Origin: a virus
DNA length: 64,000 nt
Reading direction: 5' to 3' (one strand)
Virus record (IMG/VR): IMGVR_UViG_3300034651_000084
This document shows, in pieces, positions 14,776-63,364 of this stretch. A program made the position numbers and the translations under genes. Below the pieces are notes generated by a model that ran no database searches, was not told the origin of the DNA, and was given only the letters and a program-made list of their open reading frames with translations. The stretch's first letter is position 1. Every line of letters starts with the position of its first letter.

Positions 14776-15086
14776 ATGGTGTCGATGAATTCAAAATAAA
14801 AGATATCTTGTTTAGAAGGTATGCGAATCCGTTAGATCTCATGGGAACTTACACCCTTGAAGGTTTAGCGGATTTTATTTTGAAATTATTTAAAGAAGAG
14901 AATGAAGAGCAATTATGGGAAGTATGGCTTAATAAACCGATTGAAGATGACTTTAAAACATTTAAAGAAGAACAAGTTAAAAAGGCTCATCAAACGAAAT
15001 ATAAAATTATTTCTATTGAAGAAGAAAAAAGAAATATTAAAAACAGTATGAAATTTATCAAACCACGACCGGAAGGCGGTGAGTGA
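14751..15086 (+). CDS. Tail assembly chaperone gpT portion, reached by -1 frameshift (gpGT)
   Basis: The -1 frame is open from the slippery site into ORF 14808-15086. Confidence 0.75.
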
Positions 15087-18000
15087 TATCGAAATTTTTA
15101 AATTATTTGGCTCGATTGGAGCAGATACAGGTGAAGCCGATAAAGCTATTGATAAAGTAACGAATAATGCAAAGAAAGCCGGTAAAACTTTAGGTAATAT
15201 CGGAACTGCAATGGCAGATGTTGGGAAAAAGATGACAGCCGCTATAACACTTCCGGCAGTCGGTGCAGTTGCAGCAAGTATCGCATCATTTGCTGATTTA
15301 GAGCAGGCTATCGGTGGTATTGAAACATTGTTCAAAGGTAGTGCCGATGCAGTTATAAAAAACTCAGAGTCTGCTTATATGCGAGCGGGTGTTTCCGGAA
15401 CACAATACATGGAGCAAGTAACTAGCTTTAGTGCAACGTTGCTTCAAGGGTTAGGTGGAGACACTGAGGAAGCTGCAAAATACGCAGACACGGCCATGGT
15501 TGACATGTCAGACAATGCCAATAAATTTGGTACAAATATAGAATCTGTGCAAGATGCTTACCAAGGTTTTGCGAAAGACAACTACACCATGCTGGACAAC
15601 CTTAAGTTAGGTTATGGCGGGACGGCGGGCGAAATGGCTCGTTTGATCAATGAATCTGGTGTTCTAGGCGATACATTCGAGGCCACAGCAGAAAACGTCA
15701 ACGAAATTCCTTTTCACGTTATGGTAGAAGCGATTCATGAAATCCAAAACGAAATGGATATTACTGGTACAACAGCGCTCGAAGCAGAAGAAACGGTTTC
15801 GGGTTCTTTCGGTATGATGAAGGCTAGTCTCCAAGATTTAGCTGCTGGTTTTGGTCAAGAAGGCGCTGATATAGAAATGTTAATGGGAAACTTAGCTGAT
15901 TCCATAGGGGTCTTTGTAGATAATATCAAACGTGTTTTAGGCAATATGTGGGACAACTTACCGCTTGCTGAATGGCAAAAATGGGTCGGTGTAATCATTG
16001 TTGCTGCAGGCCCTTTGTTAGTCATGTTTGGAACATTAATTTCAGGCCTTGGAGCAGTAGTCACCGCGTTTAGTGGAGCATCTACCATAATGGGCGGACT
16101 AGCTGCTCTTTTTCCAAACCTAGCTGCAGGATTAGGGTTATTAAAAACGGCGTTTAGTACTTTGCTTGGTCCTGTTGGTTTAGTCATAGCGGCAATCGCA
16201 GGAATCGTTGCAGTCATCGTGCACTTGTATAACACTAACGAAGAGTTTAGGACAGTTGTTCAAGAAATTTGGACAAATATTCAATCGATTTTCGAAGAAG
16301 TCACACAAATCATTTCAGAAGTATTAACAATGGCGTTTGACACTCTTGCAACGTGGTGGGCAGATAATCAACAACAGTTTTACGATGTTATAGACCGTGT
16401 ATGGTCATCTATTTCAGACTTCTTTATTACGGTGTTTACAGCCATCGGAGACATAATCATGGCGGTTTGGGGGCCGATATCTTTCTGGTATCAAAACAAT
16501 CAGGAAGAGATTAAACAAACCATTGAAACGGTTTGGAGCGCAATATCTAACACCTTTATGACGATTATGGAAACAGTCGGCGGTCACGTTAGCAGAGGGT
16601 TTGAGTTGATTTCAAGCGTGATTGAATTTGTTATGCCTCATGTTCAAACAATTATTGATAACGTGATGTTTGCGATTAGTAATGTCATAAATTTAGTCAT
16701 GGCTATCATTAATAGAGACTGGGGATCTGCTTGGGAAGCAATACAAAAGATTATAGATAGTACTTGGGTTGCGATTAAAAACATTATCAGCTTAGGTATT
16801 GATATTCTAAAAACAATTATCTCGACCGCTTGGAATGCAATAAAAGAGCTAACTTCAACCGTTTGGAATAGTATAAAAGACTTTTTCTCAGAACTTTGGA
16901 CCTCAATAACTACAAGAGCAACAGAAGCCTGGAATGGATTTAAAACATTCCTTTCAGAATTATGGATTTCCATTACTACACCATTAAAAGAAACGTGGGA
17001 AGGGATTAAAACATTCTTTTCTGATACGTGGACAAGTATTTCAACAAGTACTTCAGATACCTGGAACGGTATCAAAGAATACTTTGCTAATCTTTGGAGC
17101 GGCATCGTAGCAACCGCCCAAGAAATATGGGCGCCTATCGCTGAATTCTTTACGAATTTATGGGAAGGAGTCAAACAAGTATTTACATTTGCTTGGGATG
17201 CCATTCAATTGGTTTTAACGGCTGCTTTTGGTGCTATTATGGTTTTATTTGTAACGGTTTGGAACGCTATTGCAGATGTTATAAATACCGTCATGGGGGA
17301 AATATACAATGTCATTATGACTATTTGGAACGGTATAAAAGGCTATATAGAAACCATTATGAATACCGTAAAAGGCATCATTTCAACGATTTGGGAAAAT
17401 ATCTCATCAGCTATTACAATAGCTCTCAATAATATTAAAACAACTGTTACAAACATTTGGAATACCATTAAAGATACTACTTCAACTGTATGGAACGCTG
17501 TAAGCACAGGAATCGCAAACATATGGAATCGAATTAAAACGACTATTACAAATACCGCTAATTCGGTATGGACAACAGTAAATAACGTCTGGAATCGAAT
17601 TAAAACGACAACGCAAACAATTTGGAATAATATTTCAACAACAATTATGAATATTTGGAACCGGATTAAAGGGTTAGTTACTAGCGCGATTAATGCAGTG
17701 AAAAATATCGTTACAAATACTTGGAATTCAATAAAAAGCACCACTTCCAACATTTGGAACTCAATCAGAAACACGATTACAAATGTTTGGAACCGAATCA
17801 AAACAAGTGTGTCGAATGCTATAAACCGCGTGAAAACAACAGTTACTAACGTGTTTAATTCGGTTAAAAGCAATGTGTCAAGAATTTGGAATAATATTAA
17901 AAATGCCATCACTCGACCAATTAATGATGCGAGAGATGCAGTTAAAAGAGCTATCGATAGAATTAAAGGGTTCTTTGATTTTGAATGGAGTTTACCGAAG

Positions 18001-18420
18001 TTGAAACTGCCTAGAATTAGCATTCAAGGTGGATTTAGTCTAGCACCACCAAAAGTACCAAAATTTGGTATTGAATGGTATAGAGATGGTGGTATTTTAC
18101 AAAAGGCTATGGCATTTGGCATGAATGGTAATGACATCATGGTTGGCGGAGAAGCCGGAAAAGAAGCGGTACTACCGTTAAACCGCGAAACGCTTGGCGG
18201 TATAGGTAGAGGTATCTCCGACACAATGAACATGAGCAACGCGGAATTAATAGGATTGCTCGAAGACATTAAAGAACAACTCATTGGCTTGTTGAACAAA
18301 AACGAAACGATTGTCGTACAAGTTGATGGGCGAACAATTGCACGAGTAACACGTGATCCAATGGATAGAGAATTTGGTAAAAAAGAAAGAGATAAAAATC
18401 AAGCAAAGGGGCGTAAGTAA
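15079..18420 (+). CDS. Tape measure protein
   Basis: 1113 aa with 11-residue Trp-periodic repeats and a central hydrophobic segment. Confidence 0.95.
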
Positions 18421-19109
18421 TGTTAGATGTATTATTTGATGGCGAAAGTTTAACAGATGTTTTTGGGATTACGTTATCAGAGCGCCCAGTCATTCCTGTC
18501 GCAAACGCTGTTTATAGCGAGTACTCGGTACCTGGGCGAAATGGCGCTTTGCAAATATTTGAAAACTATGATGATGTGCCAATCAACTTAAAATTTAATT
18601 ATATTGACAAACGTGCGAAACCTAAGTTTCGTGAAATTGTAAATTGGTTAAGCGATAAAGAAACATTTAGATTGTCAGACAGTCAGAACTATCGTGTGTT
18701 AACGCAGCCATTGATTGGTATATCTGATGGCACCAATGATATTAAAGGGTGGTGCGATTTTGAACTTGATTTACTAACAGAATCTTTTGAGTATGAGGAC
18801 GTTGGAACAGAAAAAATCGAAGATGAGATAATTCTTTATAACCCCTCTCAGATTGATGCGCCAGTTATTATGCGCGTCTATGGGAATGGTGTATGTCGCG
18901 TGCGTATTAATGGCGACTTAATAGAACTCATTGATGTTCAAGAACAAACAACCATTGATGGCGTTTTAAAAATTGCGCATCGTGGCGGGGCTTCTCAGGA
19001 TAATAATATGAGTGGCCAGTATCCACTACTATTACCTGGAGAAAACACAATAAGTGTTGAAGGTAGTACGGAATATGTCGAAGTTGATGTTAGGTGGTGC
19101 TGGCGTTGA
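18420..19109 (+). CDS. Distal tail protein (Dit)
   Basis: VPGRNGAL motif, C-terminal LLPGENTISVEG; follows the tape measure gene. Confidence 0.85.
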   Translation: MLDVLFDGESLTDVFGITLSERPVIPVANAVYSEYSVPGRNGALQIFENYDDVPINLKFNYIDKRAKPKFREIVNWLSDKETFRLSDSQNYRVLTQPLIGISDGTNDIKGWCDFELDLLTESFEYEDVGTEKIEDEIILYNPSQIDAPVIMRVYGNGVCRVRINGDLIELIDVQEQTTIDGVLKIAHRGGASQDNNMSGQYPLLLPGENTISVEGSTEYVEVDVRWCWR

Positions 19110-21988
19110 TTACTTTACACCATGCAGAAGAAGAAAATTTTAATAAAAATGGCTATGGTGTTCTCGACGACCTTATTTTTGATAATGAGAAAGGCACTTG
19201 GGAGCTAAACGGCGAATTTAAAATATCGCTAGAGCTCCCGGCCATCACTCGTTTTACAGAACACATCAAAGAAAAAAACATTATCCAGGCGCCAGTGCCA
19301 TTTATGGACAGGCAGCGTTTTAGAATATATCGAGTTGAAAAAACTTTAGATTCTATTTTTGTAGAAGCAAAACATACCTTTTATGATTTATTAGATAATT
19401 GGATTGAAGACACGAACATCGTAGGTCAAAACGGCCATTTAGCTATACAACAATTATTGAACAGAACACAATACCCGCATCCTTTTACGGGGTCATCGAA
19501 TATGAACAACAGAGCCAATGCTCGTATGGTGCGAATGAACCCTGTTGAAGCGATTTTAGACGATGGTAAGGCAAATACCTTCATTAGTCGTTGGGGCGGT
19601 GAATTGGTGCGAGATAACCACTCAATTGAGATGTTAGAGCGCCGCGGGAGCGATAGAGGTATCGTTATCGAACACCGGAAAGACTTACTTGGTTACAATG
19701 CAACAATCGACACTTCAACGATTGTCACAAGGATTCACCCAGTAGGTTTTGATGGATTAACCCTTCCGGAAAAGTACATTGATAGCCCCAAAATGGATCC
19801 GCAACATCCTGTTATTAAAGAAATTAAATACAGCGATGTAAAGGCTGCTGTGGGTGAACATGCTGGTGATGAGGATGCTATTCCGTTAACACAAGCTTAT
19901 GACGAATTGCGGCGATTAGCACGCGAAGAATTTTCTGTTCATAATGCAGATGAACCAGAAACAACAATTAACGTTGACTTTGTAGCTTTACACAACACTG
20001 AACAATATAAAAAGTACAGCCATTTGCAAGAAGTTAAAGCAGGCGACACCGTTCATGTCGAAGCGCCAATGCATGAATTTGAAATTACAAGTCGTTTAGT
20101 TGCTTTTGAGTGGAGTTTATTAAGAAACAATCATTACACAAGTACCACTTTAGGAAATCATGTTTATGAATTTACATCAAACAATACACAAGTTGACGAT
20201 TTAAGGCGCGAAATTGATGAGAATAGGCAGCAGACCATCGTGGCTATTCGCTCAGCCAATAAACGAAATACAAACTATTACGGAACGATACATCCAAATG
20301 ATGCTGACATCAACGCACGTGAAGGTGACCTTTACTATTGGGAAAACGGCGAGGAAACAACATTCTTTATTTACACTGAAAAAGATGGTGAATTGTATTG
20401 GCGTGAAGTTGTCTCTACAGCCGTCAATCAAGAGATTGAAAGACGTTTGGAAGAAGCGAAAGAACTTGCTGAAAAAGCTCAAACTGCAGCAGATGATAAC
20501 CGAAAACGTGTTGATGATGCACTAGGTCGCATTGATGTAAACGTGGATGCATTAGAAACGCACGACGATTTGATTAGTGAAGCAAGAGGTATTGCAGAAG
20601 GTGCAAGAGACCAAGCTGAGAACATCATCAATAATAGCGGGACGGTCTTAGGTTTAGATGACATTAATAGTGCCATCGATGATATCAAAGACCCAACAAG
20701 CAACACTTGGCGCGATATTTTAGCCAGTAGTAGCGGTCATTTGGTGCAATACACGGAAGAAAATAACCAAGAAGTTTTAAGTAGTGCATCAACTCAAACA
20801 GCTAATCAAATAACCGATGCACTGACTAGTTACGTTGAAGAGTCTACGCTTGATGGTGAGCTTACAGAGCTTCATACAAATATAACCACTGAAACATCTG
20901 AATTAATTAATACCACACTCACAGATTACGCAAGACATACTGATTTAAATGATTTTGTTACCGAAGAAATCATGTCCAATGAAATTGAATCGACTGCTGA
21001 AGACACGCGCCAATTAATCACAAACATTAAAAATGACCCAGCAGGCGAATTGGTAGGCTACAACGAGATTATTAACACGGTGGACAAACACACGCAAACA
21101 ATCGGAAGTGACGGCGGAAGCATTGCACAAAAAGTAATGTCTGAGGAATTGTTTAGAGAAAGTGTTACAAATCCTCTGAACGAAACGTCAACAACCGTTG
21201 ATCAAATAAGTGATTCATGGGCACTGGCACTTACAAGTGGTGATGATATCGTTACAGAGATTAATGCGACAACAAGCGGTGCGCGTATCGCTGGGAAAAA
21301 TATTATCTTAGATGGTGATGTATTTGTTCGTGGTACGTTTACGGTTACGGACGAAGTGTTCGCTGAAGAAATGAATATCAGTAAATTTACAACTGGAACA
21401 CTAAATGCTGCAGAAGTTAATTTAATCAATGTGAATGCTAAAAATATTGCGGGTGAAAATGCCAACTTAATTCGAGCAAGTTTTAATGCTATGGATAGTT
21501 ATTTAACTATTGATGGTGTAGGTTTACGAATAGATTCAACGTATTCCTGGGACTTAGAACTGAATAATTATGGAATACAGGTAAAACTGGAAGATTCCTG
21601 GCGAAGTGCTATGGGGCGTTTTGGGGGCATCACTGAGTTAGTAGACCAAAATGCCGCAGTGGGCGTGGGAATGATTGCTAATCGAGGATCCAAAGCAGTT
21701 ATTGGTTTTGGTTCTACTGAAGAGGAGCCTTTTTATCATGAAGCGGCAATTAGTGTAGATGGGACTACCGGAGCTATACAAGTATTAGGTAACACTGAGA
21801 TTATTGTTGGTCCTACAACCTCTCAGGGTAATCGTTTTAGAATAGTTAACGAAGACGCTACTTATGTTGGTTTAGAAGCTGCAAATGGTCAAAGTGGTAT
21901 TTATTTAGGTGACAATGGTCAAATATTAGTTAGAGTACATGGCTCAAGAATGACGTTACAGGAATATATCTATATGCATCAGTACTAA
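19094..21988 (+). CDS. Tail-associated lysin / tail tip protein (prophage endopeptidase-tail family)
   Basis: NKNGYGVL and ELNGEFKISLE N-terminus, SRWGGELVRDN, long helical/fibrous C-terminus. Confidence 0.85.
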   Translation: MVLALITLHHAEEENFNKNGYGVLDDLIFDNEKGTWELNGEFKISLELPAITRFTEHIKEKNIIQAPVPFMDRQRFRIYRVEKTLDSIFVEAKHTFYDLLDNWIEDTNIVGQNGHLAIQQLLNRTQYPHPFTGSSNMNNRANARMVRMNPVEAILDDGKANTFISRWGGELVRDNHSIEMLERRGSDRGIVIEHRKDLLGYNATIDTSTIVTRIHPVGFDGLTLPEKYIDSPKMDPQHPVIKEIKYSDVKAAVGEHAGDEDAIPLTQAYDELRRLAREEFSVHNADEPETTINVDFVALHNTEQYKKYSHLQEVKAGDTVHVEAPMHEFEITSRLVAFEWSLLRNNHYTSTTLGNHVYEFTSNNTQVDDLRREIDENRQQTIVAIRSANKRNTNYYGTIHPNDADINAREGDLYYWENGEETTFFIYTEKDGELYWREVVSTAVNQEIERRLEEAKELAEKAQTAADDNRKRVDDALGRIDVNVDALETHDDLISEARGIAEGARDQAENIINNSGTVLGLDDINSAIDDIKDPTSNTWRDILASSSGHLVQYTEENNQEVLSSASTQTANQITDALTSYVEESTLDGELTELHTNITTETSELINTTLTDYARHTDLNDFVTEEIMSNEIESTAEDTRQLITNIKNDPAGELVGYNEIINTVDKHTQTIGSDGGSIAQKVMSEELFRESVTNPLNETSTTVDQISDSWALALTSGDDIVTEINATTSGARIAGKNIILDGDVFVRGTFTVTDEVFAEEMNISKFTTGTLNAAEVNLINVNAKNIAGENANLIRASFNAMDSYLTIDGVGLRIDSTYSWDLELNNYGIQVKLEDSWRSAMGRFGGITELVDQNAAVGVGMIANRGSKAVIGFGSTEEEPFYHEAAISVDGTTGAIQVLGNTEIIVGPTTSQGNRFRIVNEDATYVGLEAANGQSGIYLGDNGQILVRVHGSRMTLQEYIYMHQY

Positions 21989-22193: not shown

Positions 22194-24032
22194 ATGAGTT
22201 TTAATAAGTTTAATAAAGTAGAAATCATTTTAAGGGACGCAAATGAACCGATTTTAAGAAAGCTCTTTGCCAAAGAAGGTGACTACAATGGCCGTGAATT
22301 GCAAGTAAAAATTATTGATGGGGGTGCAGTAAAAGATTTAAGTAACTTATCTTTGCGGCTGTATTGGAAACACCTAAATATGAAAAATCAAGGGATTGAA
22401 CCGTTTGATGCGACTGATGCAAGCAAAGGCGTTTTTGAAGTAACATACCCTAATAATATGATGAATGAGGGGAATGTGCTTGTTTGGATACAAATATATA
22501 ACAACGACACATTGATAGGGACTCCTAATACAATCATTGAAGTCGAGGGGTCTGGATTTGATGCAGTAGCCGCTGTAGCGAGCGATGATTATAAAGCATT
22601 GAACGATGCCTTATTGCGAGTAGAACACATTGAAGGCAATGAACAAGACCGTCAAGAAACCTTTGAAACGAATGAAACATCCAGAGAAAATACGTTCGAA
22701 AGTAACGAGGACACACGCCAAAGTAATGAAAATACCCGCATCAGTAACGAAAACACTCGCAAATCAAATGAGATTGATCGTGAACAAGCCGAGAGCCAAC
22801 GGCAATCTGATTACCAACAAGCAGAATCGGACAGAACCAGTGATTATGAACAAGCTGAAAACAATCGAGATAGTCAGTATCAAACAGCAGAAAATGCACG
22901 AGAATCTGAATTTGAACAACGCGCGAACGCTATGGAAGAACAATATCCGGAACGCTTAAATAACATTGAAGAAGAATTAAGAGCGCCAATCATGGGTGTC
23001 GAATGGGACAAATCATCCAATCCGACCATGACACGCATAGGAATTTCTGAGGGGTTAATCGCGAATATTGGCATTGGCAATGAAAGAGTACGCAATGATT
23101 TTGATAACATGCCAATTTATCGAGAAATTATTCGAGAAGTCGACAACTTGGGAAATGTGTTTGTGCGTATACCGAAGTTTTACATTAGAAAAACAATTGC
23201 ATCAGATTTTTACCGTTTAGAAATCTCAAAAGAGAAACTAAGCGGTTTTTATTTGCCTTATTTGTTTTGGGATTTTGATAAAAACCAAGAACTAAATTAT
23301 GCATATTATGGAGCACACGAAGCGAGTTTATCGTCAGATGGTCAGCGATTAGAATCAAAACCAGGCGTACAACCGCTAGCTAGTAACAACATTGTCCAGT
23401 TTAGAGATTTTGCAAGAGCAAATGGTAAGGGTTATCAACAAAATGATGTGCACGCTATTGATGTTTTACGAGCGCTTTTTCATGTTGAGTTCGCAACATT
23501 GCATTCACAATCGATTCATCCAGGATTTACTTCTGGAAATAGCGAGCCCGGCATTGCTGGAACAACAGATGACGTCGTTGCCTCAAGCGGTGCGGTGGGT
23601 ACTGGTGGAAGCGACCCGTTTATGTACCGCGGAATTGAAAATCCTTGGGGGTCTGTTTATGAATGGGTTGACGGAATTAACGTTAACAACCATCAAGCTT
23701 GGGTGGCTAAAAACGCAGAAGATTATACAAGTAATGTTTTTACATCGCCTTACGAACAACTAGGCTACGTAAATCACAATTCAAACACATGGGTTACTGA
23801 AATGGGATACGACGACACGTTGCCATTTGCCGAATTCCCGGTGGCTGGCGGCGGTAGTACTAATACTTATTACGCAGACCACTACTATCAAAACTCGGGG
23901 CAGCGTGTTGCTCGGTTCGGTGGTTACTGGTCGACTGGCTCGGCTGCTGGCCTTTCGTTATGGAACCTGTCCGCTGGCTCGGCGCGTGCGAACTCGTACG
24001 TCGGCGGGCGGCTTCTTAAAAAGCCTCTTTGA
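22194..24032 (+). CDS. Receptor-binding protein and DGR target: BppU-like N-terminus, coiled-coil stalk, C-terminal CLec (Mtd/FGE-sulfatase-like) domain
   Basis: GDYNGRELQVKI N-terminus; 7/11-residue repeats; GIENPWGSVYEWVDG and RFGGYW...GGRLLK CLec motifs; VR at the 3' end. Confidence 0.9.
   Translation: MSFNKFNKVEIILRDANEPILRKLFAKEGDYNGRELQVKIIDGGAVKDLSNLSLRLYWKHLNMKNQGIEPFDATDASKGVFEVTYPNNMMNEGNVLVWIQIYNNDTLIGTPNTIIEVEGSGFDAVAAVASDDYKALNDALLRVEHIEGNEQDRQETFETNETSRENTFESNEDTRQSNENTRISNENTRKSNEIDREQAESQRQSDYQQAESDRTSDYEQAENNRDSQYQTAENARESEFEQRANAMEEQYPERLNNIEEELRAPIMGVEWDKSSNPTMTRIGISEGLIANIGIGNERVRNDFDNMPIYREIIREVDNLGNVFVRIPKFYIRKTIASDFYRLEISKEKLSGFYLPYLFWDFDKNQELNYAYYGAHEASLSSDGQRLESKPGVQPLASNNIVQFRDFARANGKGYQQNDVHAIDVLRALFHVEFATLHSQSIHPGFTSGNSEPGIAGTTDDVVASSGAVGTGGSDPFMYRGIENPWGSVYEWVDGINVNNHQAWVAKNAEDYTSNVFTSPYEQLGYVNHNSNTWVTEMGYDDTLPFAEFPVAGGGSTNTYYADHYYQNSGQRVARFGGYWSTGSAAGLSLWNLSAGSARANSYVGGRLLKKPL
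23908..24011 (+). repeat. DGR variable repeat (VR)
   Basis: 104 nt matching 24113-24216 with 16 mismatches, all at TR adenines. Confidence 0.97.
24002..24032 (+). promoter_or_regulatory. G/C run and IMH (initiation of mutagenic homing) region
   Basis: An 11-nt G/C run (CGGCGGGCGGC) then TTCTTAAAAAG; the TR counterpart CAGACTCTTATT shows the first non-adenine differences. Confidence 0.7.
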
Positions 24033-24039
24033 GGGGGTT

Positions 24040-24061
24040 TTAGGGGGACACATCCCCCTAA
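24040..24061. other. DGR target-recognition DNA hairpin/cruciform
   Basis: Perfect 9-bp stem TTAGGGGGA / TCCCCCTAA with a 4-nt loop CACA, 7 nt after the target stop. Confidence 0.85.
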
Positions 24062-24093
24062 TAGAACTTAAACAAAAAACAACTTTCAAAAAT

Positions 24094-24365
24094 AGGGCTA
24101 TGGAGTGCGCGCTTGCTCAGTTCGGTGGTAACTGGTCGAATGGCTCGAATGCTGGCCTTTCGTTATGGAACCTGAACAATGGCTCGACGAATGCGAACTC
24201 GAACATCGGCAGGCAGACTCTTATTAATAGCATAATTTTATATTTATATTGCACTCTATAATCCTTACCCCTTGGTAAAAATTAGACCGTAAAGAGCAAG
24301 GTGTAGTAGGTTAACTCTCGAACCACCTTGAGGTTAATAAGAAAATTCAGAAAGACTGTGAGTAA
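24094..24365 (+). ncRNA. Putative DGR template RNA (5' flank, TR, spacer)
   Basis: AGGGCTATGGAGTGC (24094-24108) pairs with GCACTCTATAATCCT (24251-24265), enclosing the TR. Confidence 0.6.
24113..24216 (+). repeat. DGR template repeat (TR)
   Basis: 24 adenines, 18 of them in nine AAC/AAT codons; non-coding copy between target and RT. Confidence 0.97.
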
Positions 24366-25457
24366 ATGAAACGCATTGGTTATATTTATGAAAATATTTA
24401 TGACATAGACAATATTAAAGAAGCGATTTACAAAGCATCTGAAGAAAAGCGAGAACATGAACACGTTAAGCAAGTGTTAAGCAACATTGAGCATTACGCA
24501 TATCGAGTTCACTTGCTAATCAAGAACAAAGAATATGTTCCAACGAAGCCAAAAATAAAAACAATCCAAGATACTTCAAATGGAAAGGTTCGTGTTATTT
24601 ATCAACCAAATTTTTTCCCAGATCAAATTATCCATTGGTCGTTAATGTTACAAATCCAACCAATTATTATGCGTGGTATGTACGCTTATAGTTGTGGAAG
24701 TGTTCCGAATCGTGGAACAACATACGCACAAGATACTATTCGCAAGTGGTTAGACAATGATATTAGAAACACAAAATACTGCTTAAAAATGGATATTAAG
24801 AAGTTTTATCCGTCAATTTCAAACGAACTTTTGAAAAGGATGTTTGAGCGCAAGATAAAAGATAAAGATTGTCTTTGGCTAATCAATACTATTATTGACC
24901 ACAATGATGGTCAACCGATTGGATTTTATACAAGCCAGTGGTTTGCGAATTTCTTTTTAGAAGGAATGGACCATTATATAAAAGAGAAACTAGGTGTTAA
25001 GTATTATGTTCGATATGTGGACGATTTGGTGTTGTTTGGCAGCAATAAACGGAAATTGCACCGCGTAAGAAAAGAAGTAGATCGTTATACAAAAGGTATT
25101 GAATTGAAAATAAAAGATAACTGGCAAGTCTTTCGGGTGGATAAAAGAGATCTAGACTTTTTGGGTGTGCGCTTTTATCGCAACAAAACAACCCTCAGAA
25201 GTCGAAACGCTTTGCGAATTCGTAGGCGTGTCAAAAAGATTAAAAAGAAAGGCTACTTGAATGATAAAGATGCTGCGGCAATCTTGTCATATTGGGGGTG
25301 GATTAAGCGCACAGATAGTTATAGCTTTTACCATAAATACGTGAAGCCGGTAGTACCTATTCATTTAGCCAGAAAGGTTGTGAGTATAAATGCCAAAATT
25401 CGGAATTATAACCGATGGAATCTTGAACACAAAAGAAAATATGTCGCCCGGCTATAA
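24366..25457 (+). CDS. DGR reverse transcriptase
   Basis: LKMDIKKFYPSI, GQPIGFYTSQWFAN (DGR-type SQ motif) and YVRYVDD; no maturase X or endonuclease domain. Confidence 0.97.
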   Translation: MKRIGYIYENIYDIDNIKEAIYKASEEKREHEHVKQVLSNIEHYAYRVHLLIKNKEYVPTKPKIKTIQDTSNGKVRVIYQPNFFPDQIIHWSLMLQIQPIIMRGMYAYSCGSVPNRGTTYAQDTIRKWLDNDIRNTKYCLKMDIKKFYPSISNELLKRMFERKIKDKDCLWLINTIIDHNDGQPIGFYTSQWFANFFLEGMDHYIKEKLGVKYYVRYVDDLVLFGSNKRKLHRVRKEVDRYTKGIELKIKDNWQVFRVDKRDLDFLGVRFYRNKTTLRSRNALRIRRRVKKIKKKGYLNDKDAAAILSYWGWIKRTDSYSFYHKYVKPVVPIHLARKVVSINAKIRNYNRWNLEHKRKYVARL

Positions 25458-25635
25458 ACCATTACATTATGAAGAAATACCCAAAGATTTTGACCAACAA
25501 ACGCACTATATTGTAGAAAAAGACCCAGTCGACAAGCAAGACCACATTTTTATAGCCATCGATATCAAGGAGCTAGAAATAGATGATGAAGAAAACTTTG
25601 AATACTGGGAAGAGGGTCACGTTGGAAATCATTAG
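25390..25635 (+). CDS. Small acidic phage protein (tail-module accessory); overlaps the RT 3' end by 68 nt
   Basis: 81-aa ORF; position typical of small genes after receptor-binding proteins. Confidence 0.7.
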   Translation: MPKFGIITDGILNTKENMSPGYKPLHYEEIPKDFDQQTHYIVEKDPVDKQDHIFIAIDIKELEIDDEENFEYWEEGHVGNH

Positions 25636-60100: not shown

Positions 60101-61939
60101 ATGAGTTTTAATAAGTTTAATAAAGTAGAAATCATTTTAAGGGACGCAAATGAACCGATTTTAAGAAAGCTCTTTGCCAAAGAAGGTGACTACAATGGCC
60201 GTGAATTGCAAGTAAAAATTATTGATGGGGGTGCAGTAAAAGATTTAAGTAACTTATCTTTGCGGCTGTATTGGAAACACCTAAATATGAAAAATCAAGG
60301 GATTGAACCGTTTGATGCGACTGATGCAAGCAAAGGCGTTTTTGAAGTAACATACCCTAATAATATGATGAATGAGGGGAATGTGCTTGTTTGGATACAA
60401 ATATATAACAACGACACATTGATAGGGACTCCTAATACAATCATTGAAGTCGAGGGGTCTGGATTTGATGCAGTAGCCGCTGTAGCGAGCGATGATTATA
60501 AAGCATTGAACGATGCCTTATTGCGAGTAGAACACATTGAAGGCAATGAACAAGACCGTCAAGAAACCTTTGAAACGAATGAAACATCCAGAGAAAATAC
60601 GTTCGAAAGTAACGAGGACACACGCCAAAGTAATGAAAATACCCGCATCAGTAACGAAAACACTCGCAAATCAAATGAGATTGATCGTGAACAAGCCGAG
60701 AGCCAACGGCAATCTGATTACCAACAAGCAGAATCGGACAGAACCAGTGATTATGAACAAGCTGAAAACAATCGAGATAGTCAGTATCAAACAGCAGAAA
60801 ATGCACGAGAATCTGAATTTGAACAACGCGCGAACGCTATGGAAGAACAATATCCGGAACGCTTAAATAACATTGAAGAAGAATTAAGAGCGCCAATCAT
60901 GGGTGTCGAATGGGACAAATCATCCAATCCGACCATGACACGCATAGGAATTTCTGAGGGGTTAATCGCGAATATTGGCATTGGCAATGAAAGAGTACGC
61001 AATGATTTTGATAACATGCCAATTTATCGAGAAATTATTCGAGAAGTCGACAACTTGGGAAATGTGTTTGTGCGTATACCGAAGTTTTACATTAGAAAAA
61101 CAATTGCATCAGATTTTTACCGTTTAGAAATCTCAAAAGAGAAACTAAGCGGTTTTTATTTGCCTTATTTGTTTTGGGATTTTGATAAAAACCAAGAACT
61201 AAATTATGCATATTATGGAGCACACGAAGCGAGTTTATCGTCAGATGGTCAGCGATTAGAATCAAAACCAGGCGTACAACCGCTAGCTAGTAACAACATT
61301 GTCCAGTTTAGAGATTTTGCAAGAGCAAATGGTAAGGGTTATCAACAAAATGATGTGCACGCTATTGATGTTTTACGAGCGCTTTTTCATGTTGAGTTCG
61401 CAACATTGCATTCACAATCGATTCATCCAGGATTTACTTCTGGAAATAGCGAGCCCGGCATTGCTGGAACAACAGATGACGTCGTTGCCTCAAGCGGTGC
61501 GGTGGGTACTGGTGGAAGCGACCCGTTTATGTACCGCGGAATTGAAAATCCTTGGGGGTCTGTTTATGAATGGGTTGACGGAATTAACGTTAACAACCAT
61601 CAAGCTTGGGTGGCTAAAAACGCAGAAGATTATACAAGTAATGTTTTTACATCGCCTTACGAACAACTAGGCTACGTAAATCACAATTCAAACACATGGG
61701 TTACTGAAATGGGATACGACGACACGTTGCCATTTGCCGAATTCCCGGTGGCTGGCGGCGGTAGTACTAATACTTATTACGCAGACCACTACTATCAAAA
61801 CTCGGGGCAGCGTGTTGCTCGGTTCGGTGGTTACTGGTCGACTGGCTCGGCTGCTGGCCTTTCGTTATGGAACCTGTCCGCTGGCTCGGCGCGTGCGAAC
61901 TCGTACGTCGGCGGGCGGCTTCTTAAAAAGCCTCTTTGA
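60101..61939 (+). CDS. Receptor-binding DGR target protein (copy 2)
   Basis: Identical to 22194-24032, VR included. Confidence 0.9.
   Translation: MSFNKFNKVEIILRDANEPILRKLFAKEGDYNGRELQVKIIDGGAVKDLSNLSLRLYWKHLNMKNQGIEPFDATDASKGVFEVTYPNNMMNEGNVLVWIQIYNNDTLIGTPNTIIEVEGSGFDAVAAVASDDYKALNDALLRVEHIEGNEQDRQETFETNETSRENTFESNEDTRQSNENTRISNENTRKSNEIDREQAESQRQSDYQQAESDRTSDYEQAENNRDSQYQTAENARESEFEQRANAMEEQYPERLNNIEEELRAPIMGVEWDKSSNPTMTRIGISEGLIANIGIGNERVRNDFDNMPIYREIIREVDNLGNVFVRIPKFYIRKTIASDFYRLEISKEKLSGFYLPYLFWDFDKNQELNYAYYGAHEASLSSDGQRLESKPGVQPLASNNIVQFRDFARANGKGYQQNDVHAIDVLRALFHVEFATLHSQSIHPGFTSGNSEPGIAGTTDDVVASSGAVGTGGSDPFMYRGIENPWGSVYEWVDGINVNNHQAWVAKNAEDYTSNVFTSPYEQLGYVNHNSNTWVTEMGYDDTLPFAEFPVAGGGSTNTYYADHYYQNSGQRVARFGGYWSTGSAAGLSLWNLSAGSARANSYVGGRLLKKPL
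61815..61918 (+). repeat. DGR VR (copy 2)
   Basis: Same allele as 23908-24011. Confidence 0.97.
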
Positions 61940-62019
61940 GGGGGTTTTAGGGGGACACATCCCCCTAATAGAACTTAAACAAAAAACAACTTTCAAAAAT
62001 AGGGCTATGGAGTGCGCGC

Positions 62020-62123
62020 TTGCTCAGTTCGGTGGTAACTGGTCGAATGGCTCGAATGCTGGCCTTTCGTTATGGAACCTGAACAATGGCTCGACGAATG
62101 CGAACTCGAACATCGGCAGGCAG
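62020..62123 (+). repeat. DGR TR (copy 2)
   Basis: Identical to 24113-24216. Confidence 0.97.
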
Positions 62124-62272
62124 ACTCTTATTAATAGCATAATTTTATATTTATATTGCACTCTATAATCCTTACCCCTTGGTAAAAATTAGACCGTAAA
62201 GAGCAAGGTGTAGTAGGTTAACTCTCGAACCACCTTGAGGTTAATAAGAAAATTCAGAAAGACTGTGAGTAA

Positions 62273-63364
62273 ATGAAACGCATTGGTTATATTTATGAAA
62301 ATATTTATGACATAGACAATATTAAAGAAGCGATTTACAAAGCATCTGAAGAAAAGCGAGAACATGAACACGTTAAGCAAGTGTTAAGCAACATTGAGCA
62401 TTACGCATATCGAGTTCACTTGCTAATCAAGAACAAAGAATATGTTCCAACGAAGCCAAAAATAAAAACAATCCAAGATACTTCAAATGGAAAGGTTCGT
62501 GTTATTTATCAACCAAATTTTTTCCCAGATCAAATTATCCATTGGTCGTTAATGTTACAAATCCAACCAATTATTATGCGTGGTATGTACGCTTATAGTT
62601 GTGGAAGTGTTCCGAATCGTGGAACAACATACGCACAAGATACTATTCGCAAGTGGTTAGACAATGATATTAGAAACACAAAATACTGCTTAAAAATGGA
62701 TATTAAGAAGTTTTATCCGTCAATTTCAAACGAACTTTTGAAAAGGATGTTTGAGCGCAAGATAAAAGATAAAGATTGTCTTTGGCTAATCAATACTATT
62801 ATTGACCACAATGATGGTCAACCGATTGGATTTTATACAAGCCAGTGGTTTGCGAATTTCTTTTTAGAAGGAATGGACCATTATATAAAAGAGAAACTAG
62901 GTGTTAAGTATTATGTTCGATATGTGGACGATTTGGTGTTGTTTGGCAGCAATAAACGGAAATTGCACCGCGTAAGAAAAGAAGTAGATCGTTATACAAA
63001 AGGTATTGAATTGAAAATAAAAGATAACTGGCAAGTCTTTCGGGTGGATAAAAGAGATCTAGACTTTTTGGGTGTGCGCTTTTATCGCAACAAAACAACC
63101 CTCAGAAGTCGAAACGCTTTGCGAATTCGTAGGCGTGTCAAAAAGATTAAAAAGAAAGGCTACTTGAATGATAAAGATGCTGCGGCAATCTTGTCATATT
63201 GGGGGTGGATTAAGCGCACAGATAGTTATAGCTTTTACCATAAATACGTGAAGCCGGTAGTACCTATTCATTTAGCCAGAAAGGTTGTGAGTATAAATGC
63301 CAAAATTCGGAATTATAACCGATGGAATCTTGAACACAAAAGAAAATATGTCGCCCGGCTATAA
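62273..63364 (+). CDS. DGR reverse transcriptase (copy 2)
   Basis: Identical to 24366-25457. Confidence 0.97.
   Translation: MKRIGYIYENIYDIDNIKEAIYKASEEKREHEHVKQVLSNIEHYAYRVHLLIKNKEYVPTKPKIKTIQDTSNGKVRVIYQPNFFPDQIIHWSLMLQIQPIIMRGMYAYSCGSVPNRGTTYAQDTIRKWLDNDIRNTKYCLKMDIKKFYPSISNELLKRMFERKIKDKDCLWLINTIIDHNDGQPIGFYTSQWFANFFLEGMDHYIKEKLGVKYYVRYVDDLVLFGSNKRKLHRVRKEVDRYTKGIELKIKDNWQVFRVDKRDLDFLGVRFYRNKTTLRSRNALRIRRRVKKIKKKGYLNDKDAAAILSYWGWIKRTDSYSFYHKYVKPVVPIHLARKVVSINAKIRNYNRWNLEHKRKYVARL

Follow-up and report, generated by a model that had tools for sequence, protein, structure and literature searches.

The window (the whole stretch of DNA that was analysed, 64,000 nucleotides from virus record IMGVR_UViG_3300034651_000084) very probably carries a genuine diversity-generating retroelement (DGR), intact by sequence, with an accessory-free target/VR-TR-RT layout (architecture A1), as part of the late operon in a temperate 37.9-kb siphovirus of Bacillota. 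Elements of this kind are familiar and abundant in phages and metagenomes, so the presence of another is unsurprising; the modest value of this one is that of a clean, compact and complete example (approximately 3.3 kb, one target) of the helper-free DGR class. The features of the element are given in Table 1.

Table 1. Coordinates of the DGR and adjacent features in the window
Feature	Position	Strand	Description
Target gene	22194..24032	+	612 aa; BppU_N aa 26-139, acidic repeat stalk ~aa 150-255, CLec-fold head ~aa 262-612 with VR
Variable repeat (VR)	23908..24012	+	target codons 572-607; differs from TR at 17 sites, each a TR adenine
IMH-like 3' end of target	24013..24032	+	VR and TR diverge at non-A sites; stop codon 24030-24032
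Inverted repeat	24040..24061	+	perfect 9-bp G/C-rich stem, CACA loop, 7 nt past target stop
TR-clamping stem, 5' arm (predicted)	24094..24108	+	pairs with 24251-24265 in MFE fold
Template repeat (TR)	24113..24217	+	non-coding; 25 adenines
Start of IMH*	24220..24227	+	CTTATTAA; predicted to pair with 24334-24341 (TTAATAAG), 3' tail of RT-18
TR-clamping stem, 3' arm (predicted)	24251..24265	+	MFE fold and compensatory changes
Structured spacer RNA, Rfam RT-18 (RF03021)	24266..24344	+	70.8 bits, E 4e-13
DGR reverse transcriptase (RT)	24366..25457	+	363 aa, intact; RVT_1 E 1e-15
81-aa ORF	25390..25635	+	overlaps RT 3' end; acidic, pI 4.45; no family match
Same element seen again	60101..63364	+	window period 37,907; repeat families D2 and D3

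The VR (23908-24011) and the TR (24113-24216) were aligned without gaps over 104 nt at an offset of 205 nt, reproducing the preliminary description of this DNA, and a recount again placed all 16 mismatches at TR adenines (16 of 24 A; TR base composition A24 C24 G31 T25) and none at C, G or T (hypergeometric P = 2.8e-13 for 16 of 16 mismatches on 24 A among 104 positions). At the 16 changed sites the VR carried G (8), C (5) or T (3). The extent of 104 nt stood as aligned but not as the end of the repeat, since TR A24217 against VR C24012 is a 17th A-site change that extends the pair by one base to 105 nt (17 of 25 A changed, 80 non-A positions identical); the first non-A mismatch with the TR is at VR position 24013. 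The codon design reported earlier was borne out by the codon table: mutable adenines fall in nine codons of the AAY type and in six with a single A (CAG, TTA, ACG, ATC, AGG and CAG), and a stop codon is never reachable. Recomputation of the reported diversity (4^24 DNA variants and about 6e13 peptides) returned the same DNA figure and approximately 5.9e13 peptides, or approximately 2.4e14 peptides for the extended pair. The VR is the sole VR-like site within the 37.9-kb unit, and lies 80 nt from the TR, which in turn is separated from the RT gene by 148 nt.

The window is periodic at 37,907 bases, with each base equal to the one 37,907 positions further on at all 26,093 comparable positions (100% identity), and the source contig of 76,101 bp amounts to approximately two such units. 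The recurrence of the element at the downstream position, noted before, is literally there, but is not a second copy, as the whole window repeats with this period; it thus adds no independent evidence. An integrase and a CI/S24-type repressor encoded by the unit support the earlier view that the phage is temperate. As for the host, formerly given as a member of the Bacilli, the nearest relatives place it in Bacillota, with Bacilli itself only probable. A megablast search of the cassette against a phage collection gave no match. The same VR-TR-RT-18-RT layout, target head domain and hairpin are found in prophage DGRs of Bacillaceae, Carnobacteriaceae and Lactobacillaceae and in Lactobacillus phage LBR48 (among the relatives, L001 is from Alkalihalobacillus, L002 from an Atopostipes MAG, L015 from Bacillus benzoevorans, and L006-L012 from Levilactobacillus/Lentilactobacillus). 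The layout, with A-only mismatches, was seen in 20 or more related loci. The RTs of the prophage relatives are 47-71% identical to that of the window (none above 71%), and their target head domains 38-63%; the N-terminal modules of the targets vary, with BppU_N present in only some.

The target protein combines an N-terminal BppU_N domain (Pfam E 5.8e-6) with a region, aa 317-611, that matches PHROG 5302 ('tail protein', E 6e-56). The AF2 model of aa 255-612 had a pLDDT of 96.2, and a Foldseek search with the head retrieved TaqVP (5vf4) as best match (E 2.6e-13), followed by PvdO, Mtd, TvpA, EgtB and FGE; as is typical of DGRs, the VR lies inside an ORF, on a CLec/FGE-type fold and in stop-avoiding codons. 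The gene comes after those of Dit (18420-19109) and Tal (19094-21988). BppU and RBP genes typically sit right after Dit and Tal, and, among solved DGR targets, those from phages that have a CLec fold (Mtd) bind receptors. Gene position, BppU_N anchor and fold together indicate that the target is most likely the receptor-binding tip of the phage, so that rewriting of the VR would switch its tropism. The DGR could also be real and its target an auxiliary adhesin or decoration (a baseplate- or neck-attached carbohydrate binder), which would tune adsorption or environmental binding instead of tropism. Such a role would agree with matches of the target's N-terminal 105-256 residues to 'neck passage structure' families and lactococcal NPS proteins, and with the presence of a 964-aa Tal whose Gp58-like extension could itself bind the receptor; we nevertheless consider it rather unlikely, given the location of the gene at the usual BppU/RBP position, the receptor binding of Mtd, which shares the fold, and a search between Tal and the lysis genes (ORFs, Pfam and PHROGs) that produced no further RBP candidate.

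Immediately downstream of the VR the two repeats diverge (VR CTT CTT AAA AAG versus TR ACT CTT ATT AAT), and this 3' end of the target gene probably acts as an IMH-type boundary, a role known from BPP-1 (PMC5758913). The pair consists, as expected for a DGR, of an IMH and a non-identical IMH*, with an inverted repeat past the IMH alone; no counterpart of the hairpin was found after the TR. The hairpin has a DNA folding energy of -12.6 kcal/mol (z -2.5), and an equivalent one, with another stem sequence, lies past the target stop in 13 of the 16 loci examined (window counted). It was also considered as a canonical terminator, which was rejected upon negative terminator calling; no T-run follows the stem.

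The spacer between TR and RT gene matches RT-18 along the full model (positions 1-84 of 84) and well above the gathering score (70.8 versus 41.3 bits), and the match ends 21 nt upstream of the RT start; score, completeness and location directly upstream of an RT gene all identify it as a member of this family. RT-18 was found directly 5' of the RT in each of the 15 tested clade members, connecting an orphan Rfam motif with the region between TR and RT across an entire DGR lineage (the window spacer also matches RT-17, weakly). Judging from sequence covariation, two helices clamp or bracket the TR. Compensatory changes in relatives (for example, L017/L018 and L019) support the stem 24094-24108/24251-24265, and double changes were present at 7 of the 8 pairs of the helix between the IMH* and the RT-18 tail in the RNAalifold consensus, a helix also supported when checked sequence by sequence. 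The MFE of the whole TR-spacer RNA was no better than that of shuffled sequences (z -0.46), and the structural claims are for this reason based on covariation, not on energy.

The RT of BPP-1 (bRT) requires Avd, a basic four-helix bundle of about 110-130 aa. Searches for Avd or another accessory protein found nothing: Pfam gave no family match for any of 24 small ORFs scanned across the unit, NCBIfam and PHROGs gave none for the ORFs flanking the cassette, and the best E-value of a phmmer search with BPP-1 Avd against all ORFs was 0.27. The 81-aa ORF was evaluated as a new DGR accessory and rejected because it is acidic and limited to four Bacillaceae relatives (kept at the same position only in L001, L003, L004 and L015, and missing from L002 and the rest); it is probably a phage gene. 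According to PMC5758913, 29% of curated DGRs are without accessory genes, and one RT lineage is entirely without avd. For the Avd-less lineage described here, we tentatively propose, at somewhat less than even chance, that RNA replaces Avd: the TR-looping stem and RT-18, the conserved tail of which pairs with the first bases past the TR, may form a self-contained scaffold that positions the start of cDNA synthesis for an RT whose C-terminus bears an additional basic tail. If this were true, it would amount to Avd-independent priming and give the orphan motif RT-18 a function, and RT-17, by its position in the sister clade, would gain one too. The two covariation-supported helices bracketing the TR lead to a testable RNA model of Avd-independent retrohoming, and a minimal diversifier made up of RT plus RNA, without Avd, would be an attractive directed-evolution chassis for Gram-positive hosts.

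Related prophages offer a natural record of 'tag transfer' for the RT-18 lineage. The loci L016, L017 and L018 are almost identical, but 16-19 TR-A sites vary among their VRs, and a TR variant of L017 (GGT, where the others have TCG) was found copied in L017's own VR. L007 and L009 likewise differ in the VR at TR-A sites and carry non-A variants of their own TRs in their VRs; throughout the near-identical relatives in the lineage, VR differences fall mainly at TR-adenine sites. As VRs of relatives carry the non-A changes of their own TR, the RT-18 lineage, on this comparative sequence evidence, does retrohome in nature. The absence of any non-A difference over 105 nt, together with the relatives, suggests that the copy in the window was recently active. 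In public data, a single contig from one run (a plant metagenome, probably the source of this DNA and available as contigs only, which cannot reveal minority VR variants) covers the stretch, with an identical VR and one G>A at 23341, outside the VR; exact-match scans with the TR of viral and metagenome contig collections revealed no other copy. These data, one VR sequence from a single assembly and no variant contigs, along with the failure to find Avd, could be taken to mean that the DGR is a fossil or dormant, having been active in an ancestor and having lost retrohoming here, for example through a missing trans-acting helper or loss of expression. We regard this as improbable: identity at all 80 non-A positions argues against long decay, the RT, the target, RT-18, the clamp and the hairpin each remain intact, contigs are unable to show minority variants, and the lineage as a whole is without Avd and has nonetheless transferred TR sequence to VR between near-identical relatives.

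The RT contains both motifs previously ascribed to it, YVDD (residues 217-220) and a DGR-type SQ motif (IGFYTSQ, residues 185-191), the latter in agreement with the DGR signature [I/V/L]GxxxSQ, which takes the place of QGxxxSP (PMC7826257). R76 aligns with R74 of bRT, and I185 matches I181, the two bRT residues that promote adenine mutagenesis (PMC7826257). The closest solved structure was that of bRT (8ub7, E 6e-24), against 5e-14 for a group II RT (GsI-IIC). Phylogenetic placement, suggested earlier as a check, was done with an ML tree of 55 RTs including 8 group II and 5 retron-like RTs: the window RT fell in a DGR clade of 41 rows (SH-aLRT 99) together with BPP-1 Brt and 20 RTs whose TR/VR pairs are verified, and all 13 group II and retron-like RTs fell outside it. 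The notion of a chance or plain 105-nt duplication beside an unrelated group II intron or retron RT, to which the top NCBIfam matches of the RT (group II and retron models, all far below cut-offs) might lend some appeal, is refuted by the adenine bias, the RT tree and the 20 or more loci with the same arrangement, and its probability is negligible.

In the proposed working of the element, the late transcript would extend beyond the target gene to include TR, RT-18 and the RT gene. Covariation shows that the RNA folds such that a 15-bp stem loops the TR and base-pairing joins the IMH* to the conserved RT-18 3' tail. The RT would copy the TR into cDNA with random bases opposite adenines, as bRT does, and the cDNA would take the place of the VR at the target's 3' end, a flow from TR to VR known here from the relatives; the IMH, present at the VR only, and the G/C hairpin beyond it presumably set the direction. 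As a result, 16 surface residues on a CLec-fold head with a BppU_N anchor could vary to give up to approximately 6e13-2e14 variants.

The mechanism of Bordetella phage BPP-1 (mtd-VR, avd, TR, Sp RNA, brt), to which the element had been assigned, holds with regard to the DGR hallmarks and RT clade, but not with regard to the cassette. The two systems share an RT of the same clade with [I/V/L]GxxxSQ, YxDD and equivalents of R74/I181, A-only TR-to-VR differences and AAY codon design, a VR located at the C-terminal end of a phage tail protein with a CLec fold, an IMH-type boundary that has a G/C hairpin (4-nt loop) downstream, and a structured RNA between TR and RT. In BPP-1, however, avd separates VR from TR; here the TR comes directly after the VR (only 80 nt, no avd detected), and the spacer RNA is RT-18 as opposed to Phage_DGR of BPP-1 (RF03022, RT-10 motif; 104.7 bits); with neither Avd nor RF03022 found, the element falls outside the BPP-1-type cassettes (avd-TR-RT core, architecture B). 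Moreover, the RT is 35 aa longer than that of BPP-1, ends in a basic tail (pI 10.2) and shows low identity to it (bit score 88), the G/C-rich stretch itself includes mutable A sites, unlike in BPP-1, and the phage is a siphovirus of Gram-positives with a BppU_N anchor, compared with a podovirus-like phage of Bordetella with Mtd. The arrangement corresponds to the accessory-free architecture A1 (TR-RT core) of Wu et al. 2018 (PMC5758913). With these DGRs and the avd-lacking RT lineage of that paper it shares co-directional target/VR, TR and RT, the lack of an accessory gene and a CLec-type C-terminal VR, often in Firmicutes prophages; the text available does not describe the RT-18 association, the TR clamp or the IMH*-tail helix. 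The top structural match of the target head, the DGR variable protein TaqVP of Thermus aquaticus (PDB 5vf4, TM 0.57), has 15% sequence identity to the target and is a bacterial, non-phage protein without BppU_N anchor and stalk.

The ungapped 104-nt alignment of the variable repeat (VR) with the template repeat (TR), claimed in the preliminary description of this diversity-generating retroelement (DGR), was reproduced, with all 16 mismatches at TR adenines (16 of 24; VR bases G8, C5 and T3) and a chance probability of 2.8e-13 for the A-only pattern given base composition. Homology extended by one base to a 17th A-site change (TR A24217 versus VR C24012), and the first non-A mismatch was found at 24013. 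In the target frame, the TR contained nine AAY codons together with six that carry a single A (seven once ACT at 24217 is counted), and no A substitution could generate a stop codon. The earlier figures for the 104-nt repeat and its 24 adenines, 4^24 DNA variants and about 6e13 peptides, were likewise correct (5.9e13), and inclusion of the 25th adenine gave 2.4e14 peptides. When the TR was run against both strands, with scoring restricted to its 80 non-A positions, the VR and the TR itself were the only matches, and the target is a single one. VR and TR were separated by 80 nt, and TR and reverse transcriptase (RT) by 148 nt.

Features of the DGR and of the neighboring tail region
Feature	Position	Strand	Description
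Tape-measure protein gene (probable)	15079-18420		Based on size and position just before Dit
Target gene	22194-24032	+	612 aa; BppU_N (residues 26-139), acidic repeat stalk, C-terminal head
VR	23908-24011 (homology to 24012)	+	Ungapped alignment to TR
Hairpin	24040-24061		Perfect 9-bp G/C-rich inverted repeat, CACA loop; seven bases 3' of target stop
TR-closing stem	24094-24108 with 24251-24265		15 bp; whole TR looped; covariation
TR	24113-24216 (homology to 24217)	+	Ungapped alignment to VR
Helix after TR	24220-24227 (CTTATTAA) with 24334-24341 (TTAATAAG)		First bases past TR with conserved RT-18 3' tail; covariation
RT-18 RNA (RF03021)	24266-24344		Between TR and RT; Rfam 70.8 bits (threshold 41.3)
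RT	24366-25457	+	363 aa; RVT_1 match
Acidic ORF	25390-25635	+	81 aa, pI 4.45; overlaps RT 3' end; no family

The RT phylogeny, proposed earlier as a check, was computed by maximum likelihood from 55 RTs. Besides the window RT and BPP-1 Brt, these comprised 40 relatives taken from genome contigs, five retron-like RTs and eight group II RTs scoring higher than the TIGR04416 cut-off. The window RT was placed within a 41-row clade (SH-aLRT 99) together with Brt and 20 RTs whose A-only TR/VR pairs had been verified, and this clade excluded the RTs of both the group II and the retron-like sets. The nearest RTs were those of prophages in an Atopostipes MAG (71%), Alkalihalobacillus (68%) and Bacillus benzoevorans (67%). 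Scores against the NCBI group II, retron and defence RT models were far under the cut-offs, and the closest solved structure was 8ub7 (328-aa chain, verified as BPP-1 Brt; E 6e-24, versus 5e-14 for group II RTs). Both motifs noted previously were located, YVDD at residues 217-220 and the DGR-type SQ motif (IGFYTSQ) at 185-191, and R76 and I185 aligned with R74 and I181 of the BPP-1 enzyme, both of which have been shown to promote mutagenesis at adenines (PMC7826257).

No Avd (the accessory protein of the BPP-1 DGR) or 23S-IVP family member was detected by Pfam in any of the 24 small ORFs scanned in the unit, nor by NCBIfam or PHROGs in the cassette-flanking ORFs, and BPP-1 Avd used as a query against all ORFs gave no E better than 0.27. 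A curated survey gives accessory genes as absent from 29% of DGRs (architecture A, TR-RT core) and describes one DGR RT lineage as entirely without avd (PMC5758913). The 81-aa ORF was discounted as an accessory gene, being acidic and kept at the same position only in four DGRs of Bacillaceae prophages (L001, L003, L004 and L015). Compared with the BPP-1 RT, the window RT is 35 aa longer and carries an extra, strongly basic C-terminal tail (25327-25457, residues ~321-363; pI of residues 300-363, 10.2); the RTs of close relatives are similar in length. This tail is possibly a nucleic-acid-binding substitute for Avd.

In the study that published it, RT-18 was no more than a motif 'near RT genes'; the authors connected RT-10 with the spacer of BPP-1 and offered as speculation that further motifs of the RT series act in different DGRs (PMC5737381). 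In the present analysis, RT-18 was found directly upstream of the RT in all 15 tested members of the 22-row subclade of the window RT, RT-17 in the TR-RT spacer of four sister-clade members (L022, L027, L028 and L036), and RF03022 in BPP-1; spacer-RNA families and RT subclades appear to correspond. The minimum free energy of the fold alone was not significant (z -0.46), and both helix assignments are therefore argued from covariation: the arms of the TR-closing stem differ in sequence yet remain complementary in L017/L018 and L019, and the helix after the TR has double changes in seven of its eight pairs. The hairpin 3' of the target gene is neither followed by a T-run nor matched by a counterpart following the TR, and a same-sized hairpin with a different stem sequence occupied the same place in 13 of 16 examined loci, the window among them.

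Evidence for TR-to-VR transfer came from three near-identical elements of the RT-18, Avd-less lineage (L016, L017 and L018), the RTs of which are identical (L016/L017) or nearly so (L018). Their VRs differ pairwise at 17-22 sites, 16-19 of these being TR-A sites, against only 16-23 differences in the remaining ~1,400 nt outside the VR. Furthermore, L017 has GGT in its TR (TCG in L016 and L018) and also in its own VR, and in the Levilactobacillus/Lentilactobacillus set L007 and L009 each repeat in the VR the non-A variants of their own TR. At the level of sequence, this record amounts to a natural tag-transfer experiment showing that the RT-18 lineage retrohomes without Avd. The contigs carrying L016, L017 and L018 (RT at 1280, 6001 and 2694, respectively) had been assigned to two MAGs of Alistipes (Bacteroidota) and one of Clostridia, the likely explanation being that a phage contig was binned wrongly or that a single phage occurs in the guts of different animals.

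In the window itself, all parts are intact and no non-A VR/TR differences occur over 80 positions; together with the transfer record of the relatives, the A-only differences and intact parts provide good, if indirect, sequence-based evidence favouring activity. Exact-match scans of viral and metagenome contig collections returned no further copies of the window TR. In the only public run that contained this stretch, represented by contigs (Logan), the VR was identical and the sole difference was a G>A change at 23341, which gives G383D in the head of the target but lies beyond the VR.

What the data show directly are the components of the element and how they are conserved, the restriction of changes to adenines, and the passage of TR sequence into the VR of related elements; the remaining steps may be drawn by analogy with BPP-1. 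Transcription would run through TR, RT-18 and RT; the RNA fold would loop out the TR, with the RT-18 tail holding its 3' boundary; RNA-primed cDNA synthesis would incorporate random bases opposite A; and the VR would be replaced, the direction being set by the VR-only IMH (the 3' boundary of VR) and the hairpin. DGRs, including accessory-free ones of Firmicutes prophages, are already well described; added here are the assignment of RT-18 to this Avd-less lineage, the two helices bracketing the template, and the natural record of tag transfer. No close relative of the cassette was present in the phage collection searched, and the best RT match was 71% identical.

The target head matched no Pfam family and has at least 691 relatives in metagenomes. 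An AlphaFold model of residues 255-612 (alignment of 79 rows; mean pLDDT 96.2) had as its top PDB match TaqVP, a DGR variable protein from Thermus aquaticus (E 2.6e-13, TM 0.57), followed by PvdO, Mtd, TvpA, EgtB and FGE, and as modelled the head belongs to the CLec/FGE fold family used by DGRs. Gene order (tape-measure, Dit, 964-aa Tal, target, then holin and endolysin), the anchor domain and the fold point to the diversified head as the receptor-binding tip. An auxiliary adhesin remains a live rival, because the target N-terminus also resembles lactococcal neck-passage proteins.

The window repeats itself exactly at a distance of 37,907, without exception over the 26,093 positions that can be compared (repeat families D2 and D3), and by protein look-up its genes mapped to a 76,101-bp JGI contig of about two units plus 287 bp. 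The record therefore represents a concatemer, by assembly or by layout, of a ~37.9-kb phage genome, which suggests a circular or terminally redundant genome, and the supposed recurrence at 60101-63364 is the first copy itself, met again one period on. Of the earlier 'temperate Bacilli phage', temperate holds, since an integrase and a CI/S24-type repressor are encoded; the host is placed in the Bacillota, probably in the Bacilli, and the large terminase is 59% identical to Streptococcus prophage terminases. Within the probable tape-measure gene, a 63-nt repeat is present in four diverged copies (16813-17898; 62-100% identity), the usual tape-measure repeat pattern.
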